Origin: Octopus vulgaris
Lineage: Eukaryota
Direction: 5' to 3'
Assembly (NCBI GenBank): GCA_951406725.2
Contig: OX597827.1
Coordinates: forward strand, 48,856,001 to 48,920,000
DNA length: 64,000 nt
The translations under genes and the position numbers were made by a program. Shown here piece after piece: positions 8,235 to 59,342 of the stretch (position 1 is the stretch's first letter; each line of letters begins with the position of its first letter). The notes below the pieces were generated by a model that ran no database searches, had not been told where the DNA came from, and was given only the letters and a program-made list of their open reading frames with translations.

Positions 8235-8611
8235 ATAGGATCAAATTTTTCGAAAAAAATTCATCAATGGCCAGCATATTAAAAAATACCTTTAAAGGTT
8301 AAATTGATAAACAACTTATAAACAAGGGCGAAAGAAAAAATGTCTAATGCCAAATATGCCGAAAATAGACACATTGTCCATAACCATATAATTCATCACT
8401 ATAAGCACGCGTCTCCAAGAGAAGGTTCTCATGAGTAGTTAACTCTGAAATCGGGTCTGATATGATAATAACGGAATTTTTTTAGAAATTTCTGTCGGCT
8501 TTCTTCGAGACGCGTGCTTATAGTGATGAATTATATGATTATGAACGATGTGTCTAGTTTCGGCATATCTGGCATTAGAATTTTTTTATTTTGCCATTGT
8601 TTATAAAGTGA

Positions 8612-8612
<1 letters not shown>
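8235..8612. repeat. Asymmetric inverted-repeat element (PLE-terminus-like)
   Basis: ~110 bp inverted arms at ~8315-8428 and ~8498-8610; left extension (catcaatggccagcat...aaaggt) resembles 15544-15585. Confidence 0.75.
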
Positions 8613-8678
<66 letters not shown>

Positions 8679-8683
<5 letters not shown>

Positions 8684-8925
8684 GTAAAAAGTGAAAAAAC
8701 TACAGAAGGCTTGTTTTAGAAGGTTAAAAAATATATATTTGAGTCATTATGTCTGAAGAATGTTATAAATTTTTTTCATACAATGACATAGATTTGAAGA
8801 AAGACCGGTTTCGCGTCCAGCTTTTCAAATTTCTTACATCTAAAACAAGCCTTCTGTAGTTTTTTCACTTTTTACTATTTTCTACATATTCAACCACGTG
8901 CTTTCACACACCAACTTTCTCACCT
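8679..8925. repeat. Inverted-repeat element with degenerate hammerhead-like motif, flanked by (TA)n
   Basis: 42 bp inverted arms 8679-8720 / 8839-8880; minus strand 8797-8835 reads aagaaa t TTGAAAA gc tggac gc GAAA ccgg TC tttctt; second copy of its terminus at 18396-18460 in reverse. Confidence 0.7.
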
Positions 8926-9335
8926 ATATATATATATATATATATATATACATTCATGTACACATGTATGCACGTATAATTGCATATAGCCAGATGTATA
9001 GGTATATCAGAATGATTTTATAAAAAGTTATACATAGAAATAATTTAAACTTATGCTGAAAGATCGCCCTATACACTTCAGTTGTGTACACATGTATTAA
9101 ACTTTTACTAAGGTTGACAGTGACTTTGAAGTTTCGGCTTGTTCGCCACTGTTAGGCAGTCTCAGGAAGGTAAGTTCAAACTTTCGCTGTTAAGCTTTTC
9201 CTTGAAAACGTTTAAAATATGTATGCTTAGTCACCCTTATATAGATAGATAGATAGATTTATACATATAGTTGCTTGTAGAAATATATATATATATATAT
9301 ATACACAAACACACACGCCCACGTATATACACATA

Positions 9336-9380
<45 letters not shown>

Positions 9381-9381
9381 C

Positions 9382-9424
<43 letters not shown>

Positions 9425-9425
<1 letters not shown>

Positions 9426-9568
9426 GTGCAGGAGTGGGTATATGGTAAGAAGCTTGCTTCCCAACCACATGCGTAGCACCTTGGGTCGGTATCTTTTACT
9501 ATAGCCTCGGACCTACCAAAGCCTTGTGAGTGGATTTGGTAGATGTACACTGAAGGAAGCGCGTCGTC

Positions 9569-9570
<2 letters not shown>
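9425..9570 (+). mobile_element. SINE family C, 5' half
   Basis: ggagtgggtatatggtaagaagcttgcttcccaaccacatg...ccaaagccttgtgagtggatttggtaga; homologous to 20575, 22988 and 30018. Confidence 0.8.
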
Positions 9571-9607
<37 letters not shown>

Positions 9608-9622
9608 ATGTATATATATAAA

Positions 9623-11036
9623 TGTAAGGTCATCCCATAAGTTCTGTCCGAATTTTGAATAAAGAAAGTAATTGATCAGATATTATAATTAATTGAAATT
9701 TAATCATCAATGTTGTTGTTTGTTCCTTCTCGAGTCACGCCTGGCTCATAAGAGCCGGTCTGAGATTCGAAGCCGCGATCCCTCGACCGCGAGTCCGCTG
9801 CTCTAACCACAAGGCCGTGTGCCCTACAATCATCAATGTACTTTCCCTGATTATCTCTGACTTCCTTCCATTTATTTACAATCATTTTAATCCCATCAAT
9901 TTAAACTCTTTTGGTTTCAATGCGAAGAACTCGAAAATGTCAGTTCAGCCTCCTCCTGGCTTGCGAAAGTTATGTCTCCCAAATGATTCTGTAAACTACG
10001 AAACAATTGGTAGTCTGAAGGCGCAAAGTCGGAAGAATAAGGTGGATGAGGAATGTTTTCCCAACCAAGCTTTTCGATCTTCTATGATATGATCTTTGCA
10101 GTGTTGGAGCGCTCATTGTCCTGAGGAAACATTACTCCTATTCGATTCACTAAAGTGGGTCTTTTTTTCTTCGAAGCTTGGTTCAAACGCTCTAATTACT
10201 GACAGTAGACTTGAGCATCGATTGTTGCATTAGGTGGTAACAATTCAAAGTGAATTACTCCTTTGCAATCCCACCAGATAAAGAGAATAATCTTTTTCAC
10301 ATGAAGTTTCCTTCTCGGTTGTGGTTGAGCTTTTTCCCTTTTACCAAGCCACTTTACGACGTTTAACGTTTCGATAGCAGATTCATTTTCGTCACCAGTC
10401 ACATGTTTATCCAAAAAGGGTGAAATGAGTTCGCGAGAATGGAGAGAAGAGCAGATATTAACTCGAGATTTGCGGTTGCTTTCGGACAATTCATGAGGCA
10501 CCCATTTTCCAAGATTAGGAATCTTTCCAAGTTCTTGAAGATGACGATGAATAGTTGTATGGTTTGAACTAAGCTTTATTGCCAATTCTTCAACTGATAA
10601 TGCAGGATTTTCTTCAAGTAATGCCTCAAGGAGATTATCTTCAAAACTAAACTGGACGTCCTGTTCAATCTTCATCTTCAAGGCTGAAATCTCCACCTCT
10701 GAATTTTGCAAACCATCTTCTGAAAGTTCTTTCATTTAAACATTATTTCCCATAAACTGAGTGTATGTTTTGAGTTGCTTCGGCAGCAGAGTTTCCTTTT
10801 TTGTACACATAAAGCATTATGTGCCTCAAATGCTCTTTGGATACTTCCATATTAGAAAGTCTTTTAATCAAAGAAATTTTAATTGTATTATTCTGTAAAA
10901 TAATATTTAATTCGTTTAAATGTACAAAAATGCATAAAAATAATTTTTAATTCCATTAGCCATTCTGAAATACTATTAAATCTCATTCAATTTTAAAAAA
11001 GGTAAAATCGGTCAGAACTTATGGGATGACCTGATA
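9623..11036 (-). mobile_element. Mariner (Tc1/mariner) DNA transposon with pseudogenised transposase (~10850 to 9700)
   Basis: TIRs aggtcatcccataagttctg / cagaacttatgggatgacct; translation includes MEVSKEHLRHIMLY, WVPHEL, VTGDE, WWDCKGVIHFELL and WKEVRDNQGKYIDD; frameshifts and stops. Confidence 0.92.
9714..9827 (-). mobile_element. Very short head-B SINE inserted in the mariner 3' end
   Basis: tRNA-like head joined directly to an X-like terminus and (AAC)n tail; 12 bp TSD aatcatcaatgt at 9702-9713 and 9828-9839. Confidence 0.85.
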
Positions 11037-11352
11037 TATATATATATACATATATGGTTATCAGTAATAATATAGGGTGAAATTAATTAATTTGGAATAA
11101 TCATTAATTTCACCAAGTAGATTTCGGCATGTAAAAGCCTCATTCGAGGAAAGTTTAAGTAATACTAAGTAATTAAGTGTTTAGCAACGATTTGCCCCAC
11201 CACACACCGAAATTTAGAAATAGCAGTCAAAGAGTTATAGCTATTCTTTCTACTAAAAGGGAGATCTCAGTAAAACCACAGCACTTGAAAGGCAAACACA
11301 GACAGGCAAGAGAGGAAGAAATGACGGCAATCTATCATACAATTTTAAGTCA

Positions 11353-11443
11353 CCTACGGACGTACGTTTCGAAATTAAGTTTTAGGAAAGCATAAGAATT
11401 ATATAATTATGTCTTACCCAACTTCTTTTCTCATCAGCGTAGG
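11353..11443 (-). ncRNA. Type I hammerhead ribozyme motif (inverted copy)
   Basis: Reverse complement: cctacg CTGATGA [long stem II] GAAA cgtacg TC cgtagg. Confidence 0.85.
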
Positions 11444-11504
11444 ACACTACAATTATGAATAATCGAAATTTAATTTAATATACAATTATTCATAATTGTA
11501 GTGT

Positions 11505-11596
11505 CCTACGCTGATGAGAAAAAGAAGTTGGGTAAGACATAATTATATAATTCTTATGCTTTCCTAAAACTTAATTTCGAAACGTACGTCCGTAGG
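11505..11596 (+). ncRNA. Type I hammerhead ribozyme motif
   Basis: Stem I cctacg/cgtagg, core CTGATGA (11511-17) and GAAA (11579-82), palindromic stem III ACGTACGT, GUC cleavage triplet ending at 11590. Confidence 0.88.
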
Positions 11597-12094
11597 TGAC
11601 TTAAAATTGTATGATAGATTGCCGTCATTTCTTCCTCTCTTGCCTGTCTGTGTTTGCCTTTCAAGTGCTGTGGTTTTACTGAGATCTCCTTTTTAGTAGA
11701 AAGAATAGCTATAACTCTTTGACTGCTATTTCTAAATTTCGGTGTGTGGTGGGGCAAATCGTTGCTAAACACTTAATTACTTAGTATTACTTAAACTTTC
11801 CTCGAATGAGGCTTTTACATGCCGAAATCTACTTGGTGAAATTAATGATTATTCCAAATTAATTAATTTCACCCTATATTATTACTGATAACCATATTTC
11901 ATCCCAGTAAATGACCACAACATCTTGTCTTGGCTACACGCTGGTGGGAAGGGGTTGGTGACACAAACTTTCATTCACATTTTGAATTTGGTGATACTGG
12001 TAACGGCTTTAGCTCGCTCTGATACTGAGTTGAGATGATGCCTTCTAGTACCTCGAAATTTAATTTAATATACAATTATTCATAATTGTAGTGT

Positions 12095-12185
12095 CCTACG
12101 CTGACGAGAAAAGAAGTTGGGTAAGACATAATTATATAATTCTTATGCTTTCCTAAAACTTAATTTCGAAACGTACGTCCGTAGG
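12095..12185 (+). ncRNA. Type I hammerhead ribozyme motif
   Basis: Same fold with CTGACGA core (change at the variable N7 position); GUC ends at 12179. Confidence 0.88.
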
Positions 12186-12373
12186 TGACTTAAAATTGTA
12201 TGATAGATTGCCGTCATTTCTTCCTCTCTTGCCTGTCTGTGTTTGCCTTTCTAGTGCTGTGGTTTTACTGAGATCTCCCTTTTAGTAGAAAGAATAGCTA
12301 TAACTCTTTGACTGCTATTTCTAAATTTCGGTGTGTGGTGAGGCAAATCGTTGCTAAACCCTTAATTACTTAG

Positions 12374-12426
<53 letters not shown>

Positions 12427-12569
12427 GTATATATACATAAATATAAATGTATGTATGTATGCATGTATGCATGCATGTATGTATGTATGTATGTATGTAT
12501 GTATGTATGTATGTATGTATGTATGTATGTATGTATGTATGTATGTATGTATGAGTGTATGTACATGTA

Positions 12570-12765
12570 TGTCTGTATTTGTCCCTCCGCCATCGATTCA
12601 CAATCGATGTTGCTGTGATTACTCCCCATAACTTAGGGGTTCAGCAAAAGAGATCAATGGAATGAGAACTAGGCTTACAAAGGATAATTCTTGGGGGTGA
12701 TTTCTTCATTTAAAAAGGTGTTACTCCAGCATGGCTGCTGTCAAATGACTGAAACGAGGAAAAGA
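12570..12765 (+). mobile_element. SINE family C, 3' half
   Basis: ttgtccctcc...cataacttaggggttcagcaaaagaga...ctccagcatggctgctgtcaaatgactgaaac; matches the 3' halves at 20745-20928 and 30190-30393. Confidence 0.8.
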
Positions 12766-12820
12766 TAAATATGTGTGTGTGTATGAGTATATATATATAT
12801 ATATATATATAGATATAGAT

Positions 12821-12862
<42 letters not shown>

Positions 12863-13189
12863 GGAGAGAGACAGAGAGAGATTCTAATACATGTAATGAT
12901 TGTAATGTTTATATATATAAATATATAAGAATGTGTGTATGTGCGTGTGTGTATTATACATGCGTACATAGAATATAGTTATATTTATTCGGCTCAGCCA
13001 CGCGCGATTACTCAAGTTTCCTTTCTATACCATGCCACCGCTATATAGATCAGTTTTATATGGGAATATCCGCACACCATAAGCAATACTGTATGAAATA
13101 AACAGGATCTACATAAAACGGTTAACCAGTAAAAATGAAAAACGTGATCAAAGTGAAGAATAATGCTTTGCAAAGCTCAACCACGTGAG

Positions 13190-13860
13190 CTCTCTAAATT
13201 ATATGCTTGGAATAAAAACACATACGTTTTCCGCTTTAAGGAACTGGAGAGCTTTGAAATGGAAACTCTCAAAATGATCAGCTCATTATGATTTAAATTC
13301 CAGAGTAATAATTTCCAACACACAAAAATCTGATATCATGTCCATTAAGGACATTAAGAACAAAACCTACGCATTTTCATATGATACAAAAAAAATCTGT
13401 ACAAACTATACAAAGACATACTCTAAGCTCTTAATGAACAACATTACACAATAATACATGAAAGTTAAAAGAAGCATATAAGCTAATAGTAACTACGAAG
13501 CCAAATTAATGGTCAGGAAAAAAAAAAGAAAAATGTGTAGTGGTTACGAGGCAAACACGGGGAATACACAACACGTAAAGAGGACAATGAGAACTTCGCC
13601 ATAAACCCCATATACAGGCTTAATACAGCCTTTTAAGTAGGAGCTTCGGAAGGTTAGAAACATCTAATAAAGTACATTACTGATAAAATTAGAATTGACG
13701 ATAAACTGCGCTAATGGATTCGCATGCAAGCAGTAGAGAAATTTGTTCAAGCTGTTACCATTACAAACAAATGCCCATTCCCTAGGTAGATTTTGTTGAA
13801 TTCCAGCCTGTCAGTTTCTAAGCCCATCTTTAGCAAGGCTCTGAAATCTGAAATGACATA
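13190..13860 (+). pseudogene. Degraded Penelope-like RT N-terminal region (Naiad/Chlamys-like)
   Basis: Stitched across frameshifts: KELESFEMETLKMISSL*FK..NNFQ..SDIMSIK, EDNENFAINPIYRL/IQPFK*ELRKV, VDFVEFQP/SVSKPIFSKALK; resembles the remembered PLE motif KDHKxNFxxNPxCRLINPxKSELGKxSK...FDIxEFYPSI. Confidence 0.6.
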
Positions 13861-14659
13861 TTGTGACATTGCTCATGAGAATGTCGACATAACAATGTAT
13901 CCCTGCATGACTGAAATGTTTTTACGTTCCAGCTTTGCGAGGATGCTCTGTTTGATTGCACAGCGATTCGAAACGTGGTTGAAATATTCATTGTTGATAA
14001 CATAAGCTTAACTCTATTATTAACATCTTAAGCATGAACTCGATAGAAATGACATGCTCGTTATTTCTAAAAATGGAAGCAAATATACACACTCTAAATG
14101 GTAACCACTAATGAAAATGAAAATAAATGCTATGCAATCTGCTTGAGCAACACAAATACTCTCTACGTGCACTCTAAATTTAATATGAATTTCCGGTAAC
14201 CTTTTCCTGAAGGGAACAAATACTTCAAAATGTTTAACCTGTGACGTTTAAAACTATGTAGTGTACTGTGATTTTGTATGTATGTATGTATGTATGTATG
14301 TATGTATGTATGTATGTATGTGTGTGGGAGAGCACTGCCTGTCATCGCCACAGATGGAGGAAGCAGGTTAAAGAGGAGGTCGACACTTTTCATAGAGCAC
14401 ATATTCTGCATGAATAACTTAAGCGTGCTGCTCGAAAGCACACTGCTTGTGTAGTGAATGGGGAACGTTTGGTTTTTAATGTTTGCAGTCGTGTATGCTT
14501 GTCAAGAGCAGGGCTCATTAGCCACCAACGGGACCGCAAATGCAAAATATAAGTTAGTCCTAGAGCGCACCAATGTTCCTGCAGGTCAGCAACGGTCTTG
14601 CTAGGTCACAAGTAGACGGCCATCATGTATGTATGTATGTATGTATGTATGTATATATG

Positions 14660-15055
14660 TTTGGTTTTTCTTGGATTTTAATTTAAGTTCTTCATGAGAG
14701 GGTTCAAGCCAGTTGCAAACAAAGCGAAAAGTCTTATTGAGATAGAAGAGCTCCAAGCGTTTGTCAATATAAAGTTGAGTTTGTGTGTTGGTTGAACTGT
14801 CGGTGCACATAACCAAGTGTATGCAGATGTTGACATATGATACTTTATAAGAATCCCCAAAGCAGACTTTTTGGAATGCCTTACAAATCTTCACTGTGCC
14901 ATGAATAGCATCGATCTGGAGATTCACCGTCTGATTATTTTGCTGTTTTGTCAGTCAAACCCGGTAGTTATAGGTTTTTGTACAAATGTTGTGGTACATA
15001 GCTTAATGCACCTATAAATATAGGTAAGAGCGAGAATTCATAGTCAGGTTATATA
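14660..15055 (-). mobile_element. 3' end of an RLE-type (R4/Dong-like) LINE with 3' UTR
   Basis: Minus translation PDYEFSLLPIFIGALSYVPQHLYKNL...LQIDAIHGTVKICKAFQK, followed by UTR and (TACA)n. Confidence 0.65.
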
Positions 15056-15120
15056 CATGTATGAATATATAAATAAATACGCACTCAGGGACACAAACAT
15101 ACAAATATACAGACACACAA

Positions 15121-15232
<112 letters not shown>

Positions 15233-15465
15233 CATATATATATATATGTGTGTGTGTCTGTAACAATGCTTTAGCACAAAGGAGTGTTTAGGTATGAAGG
15301 GGATTTAGACTAGTTGAAATATGTTTCTCACATATTTCAACTGCTAAAAGGCAAATACATTGCAGTTATCGTGGAGAAAATTATCTCCCTTGTGGTACAA
15401 AAGTGTGAAAACACCCAGTTCGTTCAGTGTTGCCATCTTATTAACGAGCAAATTAACGATCTTAT

Positions 15466-15509
<44 letters not shown>

Positions 15510-15515
<6 letters not shown>

Positions 15516-15875
15516 ATAAGATCGTTAATTTAAATATCGATCTCATCAAGTGGCCAGCATGGGAATAAAAATCTTCAAAGGTAATAATTATCATTAAAAT
15601 TATAATTTAGGGTATCTAAGAGATGCTGCCACGCTGGAAATAGCAACCAAATCCTGACTCTAAAACCACATTGAATGTTCATACGGCGCCAGGAGAGAAG
15701 ACAAAAAGACACAATAAACTATCAAAAAATCACTGGATAATTTGCTAGTTTATTTTGTCTTTTTGTCTTATCTCCTAGTGCTGTATGAATATTTAATGTC
15801 GTTTCAGAGTTATGTTTTGATTGCTATTTCCAGCGTGGCGGTATCTCTTAGTTACCCTAAATTATAATTTTAAAT
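15510..15875. repeat. Asymmetric inverted-repeat element (PLE-terminus-like)
   Basis: ~128 bp diverged inverted arms 15594-15721 / 15746-15873; terminus gataagatcgttaattt...tggccagcatgggaataaaaa recurs reversed at 29145-29228; (TA)n flanks. Confidence 0.75.
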
Positions 15876-17176
15876 ATATATATATATATATATAAATATA
15901 CATATATACATATATACATATAAGCCTAAATTCTGCTCATATATATATATAAATATATATTCTGCTTATATATATAGTTATGTCATATCAGTTACTTTCT
16001 TTAGCACTCCGATATAATTCAGACTTAGCTAGCCACGTCGAATGGTAGAGAGCAATGAGAATCGTTTAAGATTAACAATTACACGTTCCCACATGATAGG
16101 TAAATCATGAATATACTTCAATCGTTGTCATATGCAATACAGACTACGCGACCACATAATCAAAACATCATAACAAAGAATATAGAACAGTGCATACTCA
16201 AAATCTCTTTAGTACAGTATTTTCTCATTGAATTCCAACCCAACACCTGTTTCTCCTCGATAAGTGTCCTAATGTCCTTGGTGAAGCAAACTGGATATTT
16301 AAGTCTTAGTTCTTCTTATAGTATATTTTAGGTGAGGAACATGAAACCTTAGCGTAACTAACAGCTGCGATTACTTTGAATACGATACACCTATAGCTCT
16401 GGTATCATTGAAACTTAGAATTACCTTTCTAGAATTTGAGGAGATTATTTTATATCAGGATCCATTCACATCGCTGACCACTCATAATGAGTATAACGAT
16501 ACCATAAAAGATAAAAGACATAGATTTAAAGGAAATCGAAAGTGACAGGAAATAAGGAGGGAACAAATTTCGTTTTATTTTGGGTAATCAGACCACTCCA
16601 TAACAATAACGTTTATACTTTTTTCAATATTAGAAGCCTAATATTGATTGAAATGCGTAAAGTAAGTTGAAATTCTAATCATATTTAGTTTCAACCCACA
16701 AAAGAATTATGATTTCGAGGTTTATTTTTAAAATCTGACCAGAGTAAATTTACGGTTATTTGACTAGGTTAAGTTATGTTCACCTGCATCTAAGTGATAT
16801 CCAATTAGGAGATTTATTCGGAAAGTATTTAAATACTTCTCTGAATGAATGTGTGCATTTTACAGCTAATTCCTTTCCGTGATTTAATAACCCATAATTA
16901 TAGGTTAAGATATGGGATATTTCGTCCAATCATATATGGTGCTTCGAGTTCCCAATTGTATACGGTGAAGTGCTACTAATAATTGCTCAGTTAATGTCAA
17001 TTCAGTGTCCTTATCCTTTAATATCATATTTAACGTCGTATTAATATCATATTTAATGTCACATTTAGTGCCCTTATCCCTTAAAGTAGCAATTGCTGCC
17101 ACTATAATCTGTGGTCGTCAAATGCCTTGAGGATGAATTCGTTAGATGGAAATTGTGTCAAAGCCCCGTATTTATT

Positions 17177-17224
<48 letters not shown>

Positions 17225-17233
<9 letters not shown>

Positions 17234-17725
17234 ACGTTATATAATTAGGGTTCAGTAAAATAATTTACTTTACCACGCACCGAACTTTTAGAGCAGCCAG
17301 AAAATTTTAGCTATTTCCTCTACTATAAGAAAAGTCTCCCAGACAATGTATACTCAAAAGTAATTCACGTAAGTATAGAGGGAAAAATAACGAAAGATCA
17401 CACGTGCATCGATTACTTGAGAACGCCGTTTCTGGATTAGTTGGATATAGAGATCAACATTTCCGCCATCAGCCCGAGATTTCTTTAGGTTTAAATTTGA
17501 GAGCACTAAAAATCGAACATACCCGTCTGATATGAGCAATCCCAGACAAACCATCTTCGACCGCCAGTACTAACGAATTCAAAAAGTACGAATGAGGCTT
17601 TGTATCCTCCCTCGTCCACCCAAGTGAGTTATAGAGCAACAAGTCCCTACAGAGGGATCTGTAGATTACTATCAGGGAGAGAGAATTATATTGCCAATTT
17701 ATTATTGACAATATAATATATTGAC
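17225..17725 (-). mobile_element. Diverged relative of the 11052 family with decayed hammerhead (17416-17478)
   Basis: Shares ccac.caccgaa...agctatt..tctacta with 11198-11255; minus strand ctcggg CTGATGG ...stem II... GAAA cggcg TT ctcaag; (TA)n flanks. Confidence 0.6.
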
Positions 17726-17757
<32 letters not shown>

Positions 17758-17852
17758 TATGAGAGTTTATTAAAAAGAAACAAACAGAAGCGGAAGACTG
17801 GTGTTTAGCCAACAATTAATGTTTTACTCAAACACTCAGGAAGTGAGAAAGA

Positions 17853-17888
17853 CTTTTACGTTTCGAGCCTACGCTTTTCGACAGAAAG
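17853..17888 (-). ncRNA. Minimal hammerhead-like motif (CUGUCGA variant) in a TA-flanked element (17760-17965)
   Basis: Reverse complement: cttt CTGTCGA aaagc gtag gctc GAAA cg TA aaag. Confidence 0.6.
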
Positions 17889-17960
17889 GATCACAGAAAT
17901 AAACAGGGAGACAAAATAGGTAAGGGTTTAGTGGCTAGCGATATATCAGGGTGAATGTGC

Positions 17961-18022
<62 letters not shown>

Positions 18023-18044
18023 GATGAATATGTTGCTTATCTTG

Positions 18045-18108
<64 letters not shown>

Positions 18109-18111
18109 TAT

Positions 18112-18349
18112 AACAAATAATTAAGGAATGACCCTGAGAAGGTCGTTTTTATTTCTCTTCTAGTTTCAGAATTACTACTATTTTTGCGGTTTTGAGTTTA
18201 GCTGCTCTTTTCAAGTGAGTCGAACGACCTTCTCAGGGTCATTCCTTAATTATTTGTTGAATATATTATATAGTCTGTGACTATCTCTATTTTCTCACTT
18301 GACCGCTGGTTGCAGAAAATTTTTCTTGAATTTTTTGTTACTCTTATAT

Positions 18350-18350
<1 letters not shown>
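18112..18350. repeat. Asymmetric inverted-repeat element between (TA)n tracts
   Basis: Arms aacaaataattaaggaatgaccctgagaaggtcgtt (~18112-18146) and its reverse complement (~18222-18258), plus a 90 bp right tail. Confidence 0.8.
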
Positions 18351-18395
<45 letters not shown>

Positions 18396-18489
18396 GAGAA
18401 AGTTGGTGTGTGAAAGCACGTGGTTAGATATATAAAAAATAGAAAAGAGTGAAAAAACTATGTATATATATATATATATATAATAAGTG

Positions 18490-18592
18490 TAAATAATATC
18501 TTTAATGGTTTTTAAAAAAAAACAACAATTATTTACTGGTAGATTTCGGCATGTAAATATAACCATTAACGGTAGGAACTTCTATAAAAGTT

Positions 18593-18659
<67 letters not shown>

Positions 18660-19015
18660 ATATAAATAAAAGAGGCAGGCAAGAGGTTGCTTAGCCACAT
18701 ACCGAAAAAAATAGAAATAGCAGTCAAAGACTGTTTATTTCTATTTTCTACATATGAGACTCCACATACGACATATCCCTGTAATTCACATATGCAAAAC
18801 AGAAGGAAGAAATAACGAAAACAAAGTCTAACGGTCATTTATGAACGCGTTTCTAGATTAGGAATATAATAAAATATATATTCCATGTCTTTCATCAGCG
18901 TAAACCTCCATTAAAATAGATTTATCAAATGCTAAGTACCTCCACTTCCCGATCAGGCGACATTATTATATTCCTAATCTAGAAACGCGTTCGTAAATGG
19001 CTGTTTTTTTTCGGT
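18490..19015 (-). mobile_element. Relative of the 11052 family with hammerhead (18838-18904) and short inverted copy
   Basis: Shares gtagatttcggcatgtaaa and tagaaatagcagtcaaaga with 11118-11235; minus strand tttacg CTGATGA ...GAAA cgcg TT cataaa; inverted partial copy ~18963-19000 keeps cgtaaa. Confidence 0.7.
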
Positions 19016-19023
19016 ATATATAT

Positions 19024-19092
<69 letters not shown>

Positions 19093-20415
19093 CAGATAGA
19101 TAGATAGATATAAAACACAAATAAGCAGCACAATGTTTATAGCAACACTTAGAAAACATTCCCTGTATTGAAATTTTAAAATCAGAAGCAAAAACTAAAG
19201 TTATGCAACATAGAATCAAGTAAAGACAGAACCACACTATAAAATAACACAAAAAAACATTTATTTAAATATATTACAAAAATATTTTAAAATAAAATAA
19301 TACATAAATACATACTTGGCAAATATTTATTAAAATTAAATATATCTCATACGTCACAGGCTATTTAATCCGCATGCGTCAACAACTAAAAACTTGTTTT
19401 ATTAGCCACGATTTTTATGAGAATAAAAAGAAACAGTGCACTATAAAAATTGGCATTGTGTTACGCACAATTTGTCGCCATTTTACATAAAACGCTACAA
19501 ATTGGTAAGTGGAAAAGACAAAGAAAATATTTTCACACCTCCATAGTAATGTCTGTATGTGTGTGTGTATGTGTGAGTAGGTGTGAGTTTGCGTTTCTGT
19601 TATCTGTACATATATGTGCGCAATACATTTTCAAATGCTTTTATATACTTAGCTAAACATACTTACAGTCTGATATGTGTATTTATATATTTACTAACGC
19701 AGACAGAGACACAAACACTTTTATATATATTTATGTGTTTGTGTGTGTGACTGTGTGTGACTGTGTATGAGATAACGTTAAAATATTCATATAAACAATG
19801 GTATATCACACTGATATAGACATGATACAATATGTATAGATGTATATTATATACATATATATATATATATATAAATATAAACATATATACGTATGTATAT
19901 GTATATGTCTAAACATATAACCTTATATATATATATATAAATACATAACATACACACGCGTACACACACACACACGTATACACACATGATAATACCTGAT
20001 AAATCAAAAGCCAGTATTCTTTGCCGTTTTACTCTTTTATTCATTGGAATTGTTTCAGCTAACGCTGCCGTTTTTGGTCAGTTATTGAAAGTACATTTTT
20101 TCCTATATTCACTTTTATGTTTCAATCATTAAGGAAACATATTTATCTTTTCTGCGAAGTGTCATGTCTATTTCTATAAAACTCTCATTTCTGAATGTCT
20201 TTCATGATTTTTTGTTTTTTAGTGTTTGACTGTGTGTGAGTGCGAACGTCTATGTGAGAGAGTGAGTGTGTGTGCTTCATTTTCAAAGATTATACATATT
20301 CCTTATATTCCTTATAGCTTTGATGGTGAGATTGTTATAAACTTTCCTTCTCGGATGAATGTCATTTCTTTTTCATTGTTTAAAAATATGAAATAATCAT
20401 TCATTCCTGTTTGCT

Positions 20416-21319: not shown

Positions 21320-21735
21320 AGGCGGTGAGCTGGCAGAAACGTTAGGACGCCGGGCGAAATGCCTTGCGGTATTTCTTCTGCCGTTACGTTCTGTGTTCAA
21401 ATTCCGCCGAGGTCGACTTAGCCTTTCATCATTTCGGGGTCGATAAATTAAGTACTAGTTACGCACTGGGGTCGATATAATCGACTTAATCCGTTTGTCT
21501 GTCCTTGTTTGTCCCCTCTATGTTTAGCCCCTTGTGGGTAGTAAAGAAATAGGTATTTGGTCTACCGTTACGGTCTGAGTTCAAATTCCGCTGAGGTCGA
21601 CTTTACCTTTCATCCTTTCGGGGTCGATAAATTAAGTACCAGATACACACTGGGGTCAATCTAATCGACTTAATCCGTTTGTCTTTCCTTGTTTGTCCCT
21701 TCTATGTTTAGCCCCTTGTGGGCAATAAAGAAATA
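21320..21735 (+). mobile_element. SINE family D with tandem-duplicated body
   Basis: ggcggtgagctggcagaaacgttag head; body gttcaaattccgccgaggtcgac...gtttagccccttgtggg.aataaagaaata present twice, ~183 bp apart. Confidence 0.85.
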
Positions 21736-26784: not shown

Positions 26785-27085
26785 ATTTATTATATAGAAG
26801 GAGCTTCTACAGGACTAGAACTGTTTCATTCAAGAGAAATCTTCAGGAAGCTAGTTAACAAGAATTGTATTGGCATTTATACATTTAGGCAGGTTTAAAG
26901 GGGTGTTGGTGGGGGACTTTTCGGGGGTAGGCATAGCGCAAAATATCATACTTGGGGGAGTGGTCAAGGAGTCAGTGTTAAATTAGATAGAAGAATAAAT
27001 AACAAAATAAAAAAATAAAAAAATCTATATATAAAAAAAAGGGGAATAGCGTTTTAGGTAAATAAGGAGATTCTCACTTATACCT
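26785..27085 (-). mobile_element. PLE-terminus-like element with hammerhead-like motif (26814-26855)
   Basis: Reverse complement: actag cttc CTGAAGA tttc tctt gaat GAAA cag TT ctagt; same family as the 35643-35776 palindrome. Confidence 0.55.
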
Positions 27086-34255: not shown

Positions 34256-34875
34256 GTTAAAGAGGACAACAAACATTAAGGCAAGGCAAACATCTCAAGA
34301 GGTATACAATATTAGTATTGGAAAGAAAAGCATTTCTGGATGATTACTATATCAGGATTTTAACCTACATGGATCTACAAAGGACTCCACCTAATGATTT
34401 ATGCTGATGGATCTATGCAGGATTGCACCAAGGAACTTATTCTCTTGTTTCTATAACATCTGGAAGTTGAACTATGAACTTTTATGCTTCTTTTTTCTCC
34501 TCTCTCTCCATCTCCTTATTCTTTTACTCTCTCCTCTATGTCGTCATTTCATTAATATATGCCATTCTTATTTTCCCTATTTTTCACTATTTGTCTTTGA
34601 TGACGGAATATACCATACTCCGAGAACATCCCAGAAACAGCTGTAAGACTTTTAAATTTTTTTCCAATAGTAATAATGTATATGACTTGAGATGTTTGTC
34701 TTGCCTTATCGTTTGTTGTCCTCTTTAACAATTATATATCCGATGCATCGGAAATCTGCAATGGCTCCTTAACTACCGTCTCGGCTATATCCTTGGTGCC
34801 CTAGTAATCCGTTGAAGCACATACCTAGCGTAACTAATCGTTTAGATCACCTGTGAACTAAGCCTCCGTACGTTG
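34250..34875 (+). mobile_element. Inverted-repeat element with degenerate hammerhead (34593-34649)
   Basis: Arms ~34250-34340 / 34635-34739; gtct TTGATGA cgga..tccg.. GAAA cagctg TA agac; terminus tcgtttagatcacc..tgaactaa also at ~4878-4901. Confidence 0.7.
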
Positions 34876-35642: not shown

Positions 35643-35773
35643 TATTTATTTTATAGAAGGAGCTTCTACAGGACTAGAAATGTTTCATTCAAAAGAAATC
35701 ATCAGGAAGCTTCCTGATGATTTCTTTTGAATGAAACAGTTCTAGTCCTGTAGTAGCTCCTTCTATAAAATAA

Positions 35774-35821: not shown

Positions 35822-36025
35822 CAACAATTAAGGGTAAAATTAATTAGTTATTAATCAATTTCACCAAGCATTCAGTATGTAAAAGGACCATTTAAGGCGA
35901 ATTCAAAATATTACATTATATAAAAGGGCTTAGTAAAATAAATTACTTTGCCACATACTGAACTCATACTGAGTTCAGTATGTGGCAAAGTAATTTATTT
36001 TACTAAGCCCTTTTATATAATGTAA
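35820..36025. repeat. Terminus of an 11052-family relative ending in a perfect 56 bp-arm hairpin
   Basis: Arms 35911-35966 / 35970-36025, loop tac; agggtaaaattaattag...aatttcaccaag...atgtaaaagg resembles 11074-11140. Confidence 0.85.
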
Positions 36026-45954: not shown

Positions 45955-46611
45955 GATTGGTACTTACTTTATCAACCCCGAAAGGATGAAAGGCAAAGTC
46001 GACACCGGCGGAATTTGAACTCAAAACGTACGCTAAGCATTTTGTCCGGCGTGCTAACAATTCTTATTTCTTTATGGCCCACAGGGGGCTAAACATAGAG
46101 GGGACAAACAAGGACCGACAAAGAGATTAAGTTGATTACATCGACGCCAGTGCGCAGCTGGTACTTAATTTATAGAGCCCGAAATGATGAAAGGCAAAGT
46201 CGACCTTCGCGGAATTGGAACTCAGAACGTAAAGACAGACGAAATACCTATTTCTTTACTACCCACAAGGGGCTAAACACAGACGGGACAAACAAGGAGA
46301 GAAAAACGGATTAAGTCGATTCTATAGACCCCAGTGCGTAACTGGTACTTAATTTATCGACCTCGAAAGGATGAAAGGCAAAGTCCACCTCGGTGCAATT
46401 TGAACTCAGAACGCAGCGGCGGACGAAATACTGCAAAGCATTTCGCCCTGCGTGCTAACGTTTCTGCCAGCTCGCCGCCATTTTTTACCCTCAGCGTTGG
46501 TGAAGTCATAACATCGTTTGCTTGAACATCAGTAATAGATTGATTAACATTATAAGAAATACCGCTAAGCATTTCGCCCGGCGTGCTAACGTTTCTGCCA
46601 GCTCGCCGCCT
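45955..46611 (-). mobile_element. Cluster of SINE D units (tandem bodies and a duplicated head)
   Basis: Repeated gaaaggatgaaaggcaaagtcgac...gaactcagaacg; head gctaacgtttctgccagctcgccgcc at ~46455-46480 and ~46585-46611. Confidence 0.85.
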
Positions 46612-47779: not shown

Positions 47780-49420
47780 TTATATAACAAAGGAAATTAT
47801 ATAAGAACTAAAACCAAATCTCACTGAATTAAATGAAATTATTTACGATGGCGTGAAGATGGGAGGTTGGTATGCAGAAACCTCAGCAGAATTCCAAAGT
47901 GGTAAAGTAAAAATGAAAAAGAGATTGAAATAATGACAGGTGAAATATCAATATTGAATGAACTAACCTGTGGAAACGATGTAAAAACCGGAAAAGGAAG
48001 ACAAATGAAGAGAAAATATACATTCTCACCAATTGAAGAGCTGCTTTCAGAAAAAGAAACACTGCATTAAAAAATCCAAGCAAAAGCTCCAAAAATACGA
48101 AGACTTGTGAAAAGAAACAAATTTTACAAGCAAAATAAGCTGTTCACATCCAGTGCGAATACATTCTACAGAGAAATAGGGAAGGCGAAAATAGCCGTCG
48201 AAGACCAAACCTGTGCCATGGAAGAAGTTGAAAAGTTCTGGAAAAATATTTGGAGTGATGAAAAGACTTACAAAGGAAAATACAGACTGAATTAGAAGCA
48301 CATAAGGATCCTACCAAAACTTACCAGAACCAACATGAGAAGATATCACAATAGCAGACCTAAAAACGACATTCATGAAGGCTCATAAGTGGAAATCTCC
48401 TGGTAATGATAGGGTGCCAAGTTTCTGATTTGACTCACTCTCGTGCGCACACAAAAAGTTAGTCCAGTTATTCAATGCAATTATGAGAGATCCTACGAAA
48501 ACACCTGATTGGTTAGCAAGAGGTATTACTTACCTACTCCCGAAGAATAATGAAACCAAATTTCGCCAAAACTATCGGCCCATAACATGTCTGTCTACCA
48601 CGTATAACATTTTTACATCCATCCTAGTAGAGAAAACATACATATATATGGAACAGAACGATATATTCCCCACTGAACGAAAAGAGGGCCGTCGAGGCTT
48701 GTATGGATGCAAAGACCAACTCTTAATCAATCACATGATCCTTGAGAACTTTCATAACACACGAAGAAATATCAGTTCTGAATGGATTGATTATAAAAAG
48801 GCCTTTAACAACACACTGAATTCATGGATCTTGAAATCGCTGGATATCTTCAATATTTCTCTGGTAATTTCAAACTTCCTGAAGCACAACGCGGCAGTGT
48901 GGAATACGAATCTTCAACTATACCACTCTAATAGAGTACTGACCACAAGAATTATTAATATCAACTACGGCATTGTCCAAACGGACTCACTATCACCTTT
49001 AATTTTTGGTATAGCCCTAACGCCTCTTTCAAGTGAAGTTAACAGGACAGGGTATAAATATAAAATTGGCAACAAGAAAATAAGTCATCTATTTTATATG
49101 GATGACTTAAAACTCTATGGTAAAAACGATAACGAGCTTGAAGGACTATTACGTACCGTGAAAGCATTCATTGTTGATATAGGGATGGAATTTGGACTTG
49201 ATAAATGTGCTACGGCCACTTTCCAAAAGGAGAAACCGAAAACCTCACGTTCAGTGGAGTTGGATGTTGACACTGTCATAAAAGAACTTGAGCAGGAACA
49301 AACTTGTAAATAGCTCGGAATAAATGAGAGCTCTGGCATTCAGCATGCAAGTATGAAAGAGAATATCAGGAGAGTTCGAGCAGTCCTAAAATCTGAGTTA
49401 AATGCACGTAACAAGGTGTT
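47780..49420 (+). mobile_element. R4/Dong-like LINE reverse transcriptase fragment (ORF 48483-49313), degraded
   Basis: PDWLARGITYLLPK, NYRPITCLST, GCKDQLLIN, WIDYKKAF, DSLSPLIF, HLFYMDDLKLY, FGLDKC. Confidence 0.92.
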
Positions 49421-56196: not shown

Positions 56197-58587
56197 ACTT
56201 AGAATAACTTAGAAAGGTTTTGGCCAGTATTGGCCCAGGCCATGTCTAACTTAATAGCACCACCTGGCGAAGTCTTTCAGTTCAGGATTTGGGCACCAAG
56301 GCCCATTCGAGCAGAGAGTTATTGTTTGCGGAGACATATCCGGGTGTGGGTAGTTTGTCCGGTACTGTTTGAAGGAATTTGTCCAAAGACTTCTTGAATT
56401 TTGTGTGGTCAGTTTCTTTTTTGACGTGTCCTGGTGTAATGTTGAAGAGAGCGGGTCCAATTGAGGTGAAATAGTTGTGCCGTATTGTCGTTATGTGATG
56501 CGATTTAGATTTTTGTTGTGGACGGATGGCACGTGGTCCAAGCCTTGGATGCATTTTGAAGGTGATGCCAACATCATTCGGACAGTGCTGATGGAATATT
56601 TTCCACATCATACAGATAATGTAGCGTTCACGCGTCGTTGGAGTGAATACAATTTCAGCTTCTCTAGTCTACCCCAGTAGTCAAGGTCTGACATGCCATC
56701 TATCTTTTTTGTGATTGACCTTTGGGGAGCTTCAATTCTCATAATATTTTGTTTTGTGTAGGGAGACCACAGTGGACAGCAGTATTCAAGGTGGGGTCGG
56801 GCAAAAGTGGAGAAGAGAAGGATAATAGCGTGGGAATCTCTCGACTGGAAGGTTCTGAGAATCCAGGAACACATTCTGCGGGCCATGTCAACTTTGCTGC
56901 TTATATGTGTAGCCCAGCTTATGTTGTTGTCCACTGTTACTCCCAGGTCTCTGATGTTGTTGGATGCCATGAGAATTTCTCCAGAAGGAAGAGAGTATGG
57001 GAGTTTCAGAGCGTCCTCCCTTCCAAAGTGGATCAGTTCGAATTTGTCTTCATTTAGCAACATGTTATTCTTTTCCGCCCATTGGACAACAGCCAGTAGG
57101 TCTGACTGAAGGTTTATTCGGTCATCCACGCCATTGATGACCTTCTGGAGCTTGGAATCATCAGCGAAGGTTCTGATGTTACTGTGTTTGATGGTGTCAG
57201 TAATATCATTTATGTAGATGATGAAGAGAAGTGGGCCCAACACAGTGCCTTGTGGGACACCACTGCTGACTTTGACTGGGCTGGATTTGACTCCTTCGAC
57301 TACAACATGTTGGGTTCTGTTAGACAGGAAGCACTTGATCCACTGCAGCAGCTTTCCAGTGACACCAATATTGGACAGCTTTCTCAGAAGGATCTTATGA
57401 TCAACCCTGTCAAAGGCCTTGCTGAAATCAAGGTAGATGACATCAGTGTTGGAACCTTCTCCCAAGGCTCTCAAAATGTCATCAAAATGATGCAGTAGCT
57501 GCGTCAGGCAATCTCTCCCATTACGGAATCCATGCTGGTTGGGGTTCAGCATATTATGACTCTCAAGGAAGTGAGTCATACGCGATCTCAGCACCCTCTC
57601 AAATACCTTGATGATATGAGAGGTGAGTGAGATTGGACGGTAATTCACGGCAAGCGACTGGGATAGAAGGTCTTCTGGTATATATCCAGCATCCAGTGAG
57701 TTCCGCCACAGATTGGCTAGAGGGGGTGCAAGTTGGTTTTGACACATCTTCAAGACACAAGCAGGGAACCTATCGGGATCTACTGCTGAATTATGCTTCA
57801 TTTCCTTTATTGCTGCTAAGACATCAGGAGCGCCAAATGTTATGTCCGATAAAGTGTATTGGGGAGTAACATCACTGATACAGCCCAGATCAGTTATATC
57901 AGGATTGCTGAAAACAGAGCAATATTGTTTCTGCAATATCTCTCCCATGGTTTTGGCATTGTCTTGAAGAGTACCATTTTCATCAATCAGAGGGCCAACA
58001 GTAGAACCAGAGACTCTGTGTTTTTTTTGCAAATGAAAAGAACACTTTGGGATTGAGTTTGATCTTCTCAATGGCCCAGGCCTCTTCAGCTCTTCGCTGA
58101 CTATTGATGATAGACATCATGTTGTTTTGGAGTTTATGTTTTTTAATCTCTAGCGACGAGATGGCAGTCAGGTTGGTGTGTTGCTGTTAACAGTATTTCA
58201 GCATGTTGATCTTTTTGTTGATTCTTTTAATTTTCCTTATGAGAGATTTTATATTTCTAGGGATTCGACACTTAGATCTGTTTGCAGATCTTAATGGGGT
58301 GTGTCTTGCACATATGTTCGTGATGGTGTCTACAAGTGACTGCCAGGACTTTTTGATGTTAATGGGTGTGTATGTGTGCGTGAAGGACCAATCGACTTGT
58401 GCAAGATCATTATTGATCGCTTCCCAGTTTGCATTGTGGAAATCCATAGTGTCAAATGGATGAACAGGAGGGATGACATTTGTTTTGCATTTTGGCCAGT
58501 GAAATCTCAGATCACAGAGAACCATGTCATGGTTGGGGAGTAGGGTTTTCTCCACTGCAATATTGTGGATAGTATCAGTGTGATTGC

Positions 58588-58592
<5 letters not shown>
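56197..58592 (-). mobile_element. CR1/L2-group LINE, 5' truncated, RT ORF 58071-56608
   Basis: NYRPISLTS, QHGFR, YLDFSKAFDRVDH, SGVPQGTVLGPLLF, FADD, RPHLEYC, LYSLQRR; short (ttctaagtta)2 tail; a few frameshifts and an internal deletion. Confidence 0.92.
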
Positions 58593-58638
<46 letters not shown>

Positions 58639-58697
58639 TATATATTGGCTAAACTGACAATATGACCATTCCGAAATATAACAATATATATATATGT

Positions 58698-59274: not shown

Positions 59275-59342
59275 CTGAAGAGTGGCTATTGATTTACTTA
59301 TTATCATTTCTTAAATATAGCCAGGAAACACGTGTCGTTATT
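59275..59342 (+). ncRNA. Hammerhead motif with long stem II; 5' strand of stem I replaced by (TA)n
   Basis: CTGAAGA g tggctat...atagcca g GAAA cacgtg TC gttatt; palindromic ACACGTGT. Confidence 0.65.

Follow-up and report, generated by a model that had tools for sequence, protein, structure and literature searches.

How is a hammerhead motif to be read when the two halves of its catalytic core lie some sixty nucleotides apart? The question arises at positions 11505-11596 of a 64,000-nt stretch of the Octopus vulgaris genome (hereafter the window), which consists of AT-rich, microsatellite-laden eukaryotic DNA. An earlier note on this DNA had proposed a hammerhead with an unusually long stem II and a palindromic stem III, and a pattern match confirms the motif, with a 61-nt spacer and a palindrome between GAAA and GTC. 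Its parts, and the two further copies nearby, are:

11505-11596, plus strand: type I hammerhead, copy 1 (pattern match and constrained fold)
11505-11510, plus strand: 5′ strand of stem I, CCTACG, paired with 11591-11596, CGTAGG, in six Watson-Crick pairs
11511-11517, plus strand: catalytic core CUGAUGA, in which N7 is C in the copy at 12095
11518-11578, plus strand: extended helix II with a 61-nt spacer (fold computation)
11579-11590, plus strand: GAAA, the self-complementary helix III segment (11582-11589) and predicted cleavage after C11590
11591-11600, plus strand: 3′ strand of stem I, followed by U (position 1.7, at 11597), common to three related lineages
12095-12185, plus strand: hammerhead copy 2, 60-nt spacer, 590 nt downstream of copy 1 and its proposed dimer partner
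11353-11443, minus strand: hammerhead copy 3, 60-nt spacer, within an inverted arm

The conserved core (CUGANGA, GAAA and NUH) is intact in all three copies. It is surrounded by three helices and open at helix I: a 6-bp stem I (pair probabilities of 0.95-1.0 in the constrained fold of copy 1), a 4-bp proximal helix II with G10.1-C11.1, and a helix III of 2 bp in the monomer and 8 bp in the dimer, according to the computed folds. The helix III segment of copy 1 is the 8-nt palindrome ACGTACGT, followed by the cleavage triplet GTC.

A long spacer makes it easier for short motifs to fall into place by chance, and core, spacer and palindrome alone do occur together elsewhere, in at least 141 metagenome and viral matches to the general pattern. 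Each of these loci (at least 120 metagenomic and 21 viral) was checked for a 6-pair Watson-Crick stem I, which is found in 0 of the 141 listed. The strict pattern has five matches in the 64-kb window (the three long-arm copies and two short-stem motifs) and none in 200 block shuffles. The family-specific pattern has no match in metagenome contigs; one viral-contig match to the pattern of a relative was set aside, as no stem I is visible in it by eye. Together with the pseudo-LTR position and the compensatory changes in relatives described below, these controls refute a chance arrangement, whose probability is now negligible. Judged by its sequence, 11505-11596 is genuinely a hammerhead motif; its class is known, as is the kind of element that carries it, and its cleavage is predicted.

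The earlier note's expectation that searches with short stem limits would miss the motif is borne out. The descriptor for minimal hammerheads (min-HHR) in the accessible part of the PMC4209133 supplement allows a helix II of 3-7 bp and a loop 2 of 3-10 nt (no more than about 26 nt) and would therefore pass over a spacer of 60-61 nt. No hammerhead match reaches the Rfam gathering score anywhere in the window, and no hammerhead family appears among the 108 Rfam matches with E up to 10 in 8500-19500. The label "minimal" does not fit, however: in the same part of that supplement the min-HHR has no helix III (gaaaNNuh) and an extra nucleotide after A9, whereas the 11505 family has a full 6-bp stem I and an 8-nt palindrome and lacks that nucleotide. 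The 11505 hammerhead is thus classed here as neither a min-HHR nor an Rfam member.

All three copies lie within one insertion, 11052-12376, with the following layout:

11034-11051, unstranded: left (TA)n target tract, at the end of a mariner remnant
11052-11463, minus strand: inverted, 5′-truncated copy equivalent to 11485-11897, with one substitution and one indel
11463-11897, plus strand: first direct copy (pseudo-LTR and tail), 5′-truncated
11788-11897, plus strand: tail of about 110 nt, present at the left (inverted) end and absent at the right end
11898-12376, plus strand: second unit, consisting of a 155-nt non-coding 5′ part and a pseudo-LTR copy
12377-12552, unstranded: right (TA)n/(TATG)n tract

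The insertion thus combines an inverted 5′-truncated copy, a 590-nt partial tandem, a one-sided tail and (TA)n flanks. The pseudo-LTR copy at 12053-12376 matches 11463-11787 at 98%, and the tandem amounts to 1.55 units, with two complete hammerheads 590 nt apart and an incomplete second unit. The tail is found at the left end only because the second unit stops at the equivalent of 11787. This layout supports the Penelope-like element (PLE) context proposed earlier. A perfect 8-bp hairpin occupies 11481-11500, immediately 5′ of stem I, where common subfamilies differ; the inverted copy begins inside it (at the equivalent of 11485), which may mark a template switch. At position 11752 copy 1 and the inverted arm carry G and copy 2 the family-majority A, a weak hint that a linear tandem rather than a circle may have served as insertion template. 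A 14-mer shared by both flanks was rejected as a target-site duplication because it occurs 55 times in the window.

An autonomous PLE has a single ORF with a telomerase-like RT and a GIY-YIG endonuclease, and 11052-12376 has none: it contains no ORF of 120 aa or more, the longest frame overlapping 11600-12100 is 72 aa, and no PLE ORF is present among the 16 window ORFs scanned with Pfam. Two window RT ORFs (48429-49313, plus strand, and 56608-58116) were considered as PLE helpers and discarded, since they match Pfam RVT_1 and, by their motifs, look like non-LTR LINE proteins. They belong to two broken non-LTR retrotransposon RT regions matching RVT_1 (48429-49313, plus strand, and 56282-58648, minus strand). 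Elsewhere in the window, 184-bp tandem units of an abundant dispersed repeat lie at 21368-21735 and 46065-46431. The Penelope-like insertion itself sits in the TA tract at the right end of the mariner remnant (9625-11033), which has a Pfam Transposase_1 match (E 1.4e-17) and matching terminal inverted repeats. By its sequence, the element agrees with membership of the non-autonomous PLEs or retrozymes in every feature examined (tandem pseudo-LTRs, inverted copy, tail and (TA)n target). On balance, the motif is probably the type I hammerhead that a high-copy, protein-less element of Penelope-like type, short at about 590 nt, carries in its pseudo-LTR. Such an element would depend for its movement on an autonomous PLE acting in trans and targeting (TA)n.

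The family is abundant. The stretch is present, whole or in part, in 20 of 24 listed runs under four organism labels, and contigs from four of these runs (X1, X3, X4 and X7, one per organism label) could be placed on 11463-12052, numbering 2949, 1361, 1227 and 547. The family is therefore high-copy under all four labels. Contigs bridge the 11897/11898 junction with at least 31 letters on each side in X1, X4 and X7, and in X1, X3 and X4 position 12050 is joined to 11472; the ends of the 590-nt unit therefore meet with no long insert between them. Position 11897, followed by (TA)n, is where many copies of the family end, and 16 X1 contigs run into (TA)n there. The repeat might instead be debris from the 3′ end of a full-length autonomous PLE rather than a self-contained 590-nt non-autonomous unit. 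Contig coverage of the 3′ part exceeds that of 11903-12000 several-fold, as it would for 5′-truncated copies, and short contigs leave room for a longer parent. Such an origin is nevertheless unlikely, given that the junction is bridged in three of the four runs and that the 155-nt 5′ part is homologous to the corresponding part of the relative at 17478 and has no coding frame. The reading of the motif as a ribozyme is unaffected by this choice.

Alone, a single hammerhead unit is not predicted to adopt the active fold. The free fold of the monomer (-19.3 kcal/mol) is better than the hammerhead (-14.1 kcal/mol) and pairs the core with the palindrome, an inactive arrangement with a probability of about 0.9. 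The palindrome forms a duplex at -9.8 kcal/mol against +2.4 kcal/mol for the monomer hairpin, and on a tandem transcript the double hammerhead (-183.6 kcal/mol) is 13 kcal/mol better than two monomeric hammerheads (-170.6 kcal/mol). The free fold of the tandem, at -187.6 kcal/mol, is in turn 4 kcal/mol better than the active double hammerhead. With two separate strands the double hammerhead beats the free monomers for both long-arm copies (-42.8 against 2 × free monomer, -38.6 kcal/mol), while in the relative at 18904, which has a mismatch in stem I, it is worse (-19.5 against -26.8 kcal/mol for two free monomers). Dimer cleavage is plausible on these energies, since the double hammerhead is computed to beat the monomeric ones, and it is the established behaviour of this hammerhead class in the available parts of PMC4209133 and PMC6765202. 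The computations thus lend support to the proposal of cleavage through the palindromes. The related idea that two tandem copies could pair holds energetically, but there are three copies and not two, the third at 11443-11353 on the minus strand.

In the mechanism that these folds suggest, the 8-nt palindromes of two copies on one tandem transcript would come together as a long helix III, with stem I strands exchanged between the copies, so that a double hammerhead forms. Cuts after C11590 and C12179 would free a 589-nt monomer, which may be circularised or reverse-transcribed directly. The hammerhead would then work like a dimer-dependent PLE or retrozyme hammerhead. A variant at the centre of the palindrome, 11586 A>G (12% in X1, 3% in X3, 0 in X4 and 9% in X7), would give tandem wobble pairs in such a dimer if the copies pair as proposed. 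Speculatively, a transcript that reads through the inverted arm would pair over about 380 nt with copy 1 and leave copy 2 without its dimer partner, and this sequestration of copy 1 may spare host transcripts.

Further long-spacer sites in the window allow the arm to be compared between lineages:

17231-17680, minus strand: diverged relative of the unit, ending in (TA)n; decayed hammerhead at 17478-17416 with a 33-nt spacer and the core CTGATGG
18668-18951, minus strand: diverged relative, ending in (TA)n; hammerhead at 18904-18838 with a 38-nt spacer and a 6-nt palindrome
18963-19004, plus strand: short inverted partner of the 18904 copy, with the 3′ half of the hammerhead only
35826-36021, unstranded: inverted-pair stub of the 3′ end of a further relative, with a tail on the left arm only and (TA)n on both sides
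59275-59342, plus strand: separate decayed hammerhead-like motif with a 43-nt spacer containing a 7-bp helix and an 8-nt palindrome

A stem II of about 60 nt with different sequence had been claimed for three of these sites. The length does not hold: the spacers measure 33 nt (17416-17478), 38 nt (18838-18904) and 43 nt (59275-59342). The difference in sequence holds for the last only, as the first two are diverged homologues of the element (nhmmer E 4.3e-9 for the 17478 site and 2.5e-5 for the 18904 site) and both end in (TA)n at the equivalent of 11787, whereas the 59275 site has no nhmmer match to the 11052-12376 element. The stub at 35826-36021 matches weakly (E 0.0098 in one search, 0.004 and 0.005 in another). 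Because the two homologous sites are relatives of the element, arm length varies within one lineage, and the uniform subclass of about 60 nt proposed earlier is not seen, its relatives lying at 33-38 nt. The 59275 motif has its stem I broken by a (TA)n tract, with three of six pairs left. The 11505 family has a canonical G-C at 10.1-11.1, unlike four other sites with a mismatch there (C.A at 17416-17478, A.A at 18838-18904, G.G at 59275-59342 and U.U at 26802-26852).

Other hammerhead-like sites also occur in the window. A second family (26802-26852 and 35661-35711 on the minus strand, 35707-35759 on the plus strand) has a 12-nt helix II spacer, a U.U mismatch at the helix base and a 16-nt helix III region; its 35661-35759 pair forms an inverted palindrome that overlaps at stem I and lies between (TA)n tracts. 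At 8677-8880, inverted repeats of about 43 bp enclose a hammerhead-like stretch with CTGAAGA at 8753, a 39-nt spacer, a near-palindrome after GAAA and a 4-pair stem I, possibly another decayed PLE end. A long-spacer candidate at 34590-34655 (plus strand) has the core TTGATGA (one change), a 30-nt spacer, an 8-nt palindrome and a 4-pair stem I.

Across the three lineages (three independent sequences), stem I carries changes on both sides at four of its six pairs; the palindrome persists with lengths of 8 and 6 nt, and of 7 nt in the decayed copy. The 33- and 38-nt arms share one design (a mismatch, three pairs, a 3x3 loop and a hairpin) and differ by both-sided changes at one proximal and three distal pairs. 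The covariation expected for stem II is accordingly present between the two shorter arms, as well as in stem I, and none was found within the 60-nt arm. Compensation in stem I and a palindrome kept at differing lengths point to selection during transposition. This bears on whether the motif is a structural relic with negligible cleavage irrelevant to spread, whose arm grew once catalysis had ceased to matter. The inactive fold of the monomer (about 0.9 for the core-palindrome pairs) is compatible with a relic, two of the other long-spacer sites are decayed, and in the available parts of the literature PLE hammerheads cleave poorly in vitro (PMC4209133) and catalytic mutants of a lizard PLE have no effect on insertion in vitro (PMC11167929). 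Selection as recorded by stem I and the palindrome speaks against it, as does the finding that no core or stem I position has a listed substitution in the four runs, with 40 of 43 variable places listed and the 5′ half thinly covered; a relic is improbable.

What, then, is the long arm? In copy 1, helix II consists of the 4-bp proximal helix, an internal loop ending in A11574 and, beyond it, an interrupted rod of about 16 further pairs with an 11-nt apical loop. The computed rod has about 20 pairs in five short helices (GAAA/UUUC, AAGU/ACUU, UGGG/CCUA, AAG/CUU and CAUAA/UUAUG). The interrupted hairpin described earlier is therefore recovered in outline as a rod of short helices, but two of its proposed pairings, cataa/ttatg and aattatataatt, are mutually exclusive because both use 11541-11542, and the arm is only weakly stable: the 61-nt arm alone folds at -9.0 kcal/mol (z -1.39, p 0.10, 1000 shuffles) and the 60-nt arm at -10.7 kcal/mol (p 0.035 against shuffles). 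For the 33-, 38- and 43-nt spacers the shuffle p values are 0.048, 0.004 and 0.03.

Variation within the family was read from a table listing 40 of 43 variable places. The three substitutions listed in 11543-11627 fall at 11547 (apical loop), 11573 (first internal loop) and 11586 (palindrome centre), and the indels listed there fall in A runs; none of the 26 modelled paired positions on the 3′ side of the arm has a listed substitution in the contigs of the four runs. The 5′ half of the arm is thinly covered because the common subfamilies differ at about 11530-11540. Within the 40 of 43 places listed, variable positions number 3 of 85 in the ribozyme and 37 of 425 elsewhere, a difference that is not significant (Fisher p 0.073). 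Subfamilies differing at 11537-11540 can form the apical hairpin in a shifted register (by hand, assuming linkage of the variants). No strict compensatory pair within the 60-nt arm was seen among the family variants. RNAalifold on four copies gives no shared stem II pairs, from an alignment that is poor because arm lengths differ; its consensus pairing of core with palindrome was discarded as evidence because catalysis keeps both sides invariant. Possible pseudoknots between arm and flanks comprise only AT-rich 6-7-mers, none common to the three lineages. All three have in common a short CCUAA-like segment next to the loop.

These results can be set against the idea that selection maintains the apical arm as a functional module, such as a grip by which a helper PLE protein holds the RNA and licenses cleavage or reverse transcription, and that the arm defines a distinct long-arm subclass. 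The avoidance of modelled paired positions by the listed variants, the shifted-register hairpin still open to the 11537-11540 subfamilies and the recurrent CCUAA-like segment would all suit such a module, and a lizard PLE hammerhead is cleaved only with PLE protein present (PMC11167929, available part). The idea is nonetheless rather doubtful, as the arm ranges from 33 to 61 nt within one lineage, is of marginal stability, shows no strict compensatory pair in its 60-nt form and has no consistent pseudoknot partner in the flanks of three lineages. The reading we prefer for the long stem II is an ordinary proximal helix of 4 positions, followed by an internal loop and an apical extension that drifts in length and register between lineages. 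The extension would have to stay folded clear of the core, with its exact sequence probably not under tight selection.

The point at which the arm departs from a plain helix is constant. The three lineages have Watson-Crick pairs at 10.2-10.4, after which helix II is interrupted at pair 5, where the 3′ strand has an unpaired A (11.5); their stem I has 6 pairs, and the next position, 1.7, is U (three of three). The unrelated 59275 motif has neither the unpaired A at 11.5 nor the U at 1.7. In hammerhead structures, U1.7 has as its pairing partner an A from the end of loop II. A tentative suggestion, held at somewhat less than even confidence, is that the 3′ A of the internal loop stands in for loop II and contacts U1.7, which would make the geometry canonical and not minimal; it draws on three related sequences in an AT-rich genome together with this structural background. 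The lengths of stem I and of helix II up to its break are those stated for canonical hammerheads with loop-loop contact in the available part of PMC4209133. A broader picture, in which a very abundant and so far undescribed lineage of ORF-less Penelope satellites makes the canonical contact through the internal loop, uses a variable apical arm as the grip of a helper RT/endonuclease and yields circular RNAs of about 590 nt, and in which the blind spot of descriptors and Rfam also hides ribozymes in hammerhead-less or "half-core" PLE clades, is less likely still than the functional arm taken by itself.

The practical consequences concern surveys. Descriptors with a ceiling of about 26 nt on helix II underlie the counts of hammerheads and retrozymes made in animal genomes, and a high-copy long-arm family escapes such descriptors for that reason. 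Loosening the helix II limit would show at little cost whether PLE clades called "hammerhead-less" are truly devoid of ribozymes. One lineage offers arms of three natural lengths, all broken at pair 5, as a series for testing whether loop II is replaceable by an internal loop; the same series is useful for asking what PLE hammerheads are for. The chemistry and the known link between PLEs and hammerheads are unchanged.

Among known systems, the closest are the hammerheads with palindromic helix III in PLE pseudo-LTRs (Cervera and De la Pena 2014, PMC4209133). As far as the available text goes, they share with the 11505 family the type I topology, the intact CUGANGA/GAAA/NUH core, the palindromic helix III, the pseudo-LTR location, the predicted dimer cleavage and opposite-strand pairs 100-700 bp apart. 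The difference lies in helix II, which there has 6-8 bp and here a spacer of 60-61 nt, or 33-38 nt in the relatives.

Non-LTR retrozymes (PMC7229834; Li et al. 2026, 10.64898/2026.07.22.740005), in the portions of these sources available, are likewise non-coding tandem units with a type I hammerhead, low GC and a derivation from PLE pseudo-LTRs. The 590-nt unit falls within the 51-972 bp range of 10.64898/2026.07.22.740005 and is about twice the usual retrozyme monomer of about 300 bp. Unlike retrozymes in their long arrays, the present element consists of 1.55 units in a PLE-type inverted and tailed insertion, its helix II is not canonical, and it is known from DNA. A description of cephalopod retrozymes was not found in the literature searched, mainly open-access texts.

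The insertion layout agrees with that of (TA)n-targeting EN+ PLEs (Naiad, Hydra and Neptune; Craig et al. 2021, PMC8557442), which, in the available part of that work, share the partial tandem, the (TA)n target, the inverted 5′-truncated copy and a tail at one end only. In contrast to these, the present element has no RT/GIY-YIG ORF, and its tail measures about 110 nt and not 30-40 bp. Mismatches at the base of helix II are already known in PLE hammerheads from the same part, and the N.N mismatch of the relatives resembles motifs listed there for the Hydra clade, as does the second, short-spacer family (File S2). Four short motifs used to link the element to a clade (Naiad, Hydra or Chlamys) have no match in the accessible PMC8557442 supplement, whose line breaks and cut cells weaken such a search, and by eye the 3′ ends of Naiad_Obim, Naiad_Ovul and Hydra-1_Obim given there bear no likeness to the element.

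The same supplement, as available, holds an observation of its own. By eye, the 3′ ends of Naiad_Obim and Naiad_Ovul contain all hammerhead parts in shuffled order: the helix II 5′ strand; the helix III 3′ strand, UA and the helix I 3′ strand; the helix II 3′ strand, GAAA and the helix III 5′ strand; and then the helix I 5′ strand and CUGAUGA. About 6, 5 and 6 pairs would result, and the gap in the chain would fall between A9 and 10.1. The Naiad half-core ends could thus represent a hammerhead with its parts rearranged, in a clade described as hammerhead-less.

A long helix II, finally, is not as unrecorded as it had seemed, for long PLE spacers are already on record as deviations in the available part of PMC8557442. 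PLE-X1_sMoe, a plant PLE (File S2), has 54 nt between its core halves by our own count, with a 9-bp helix and a 35-nt loop, and the "HHR_half_core" entries of eight Naiads, two of them from cephalopods, have 35-50 nt. A long-helix-II hammerhead family in animals was not found in the literature searched, mainly open-access texts and without Lunse et al. 2017 on PLE variants. PLE-X1_sMoe and the Naiad half cores are flagged there as deviating or incomplete; the present family has complete stems I and III and is abundant in an animal. Its distinguishing trait is a helix II at the long extreme with a fixed internal loop, joined to an ordinary core and a likely dependence on pairs.
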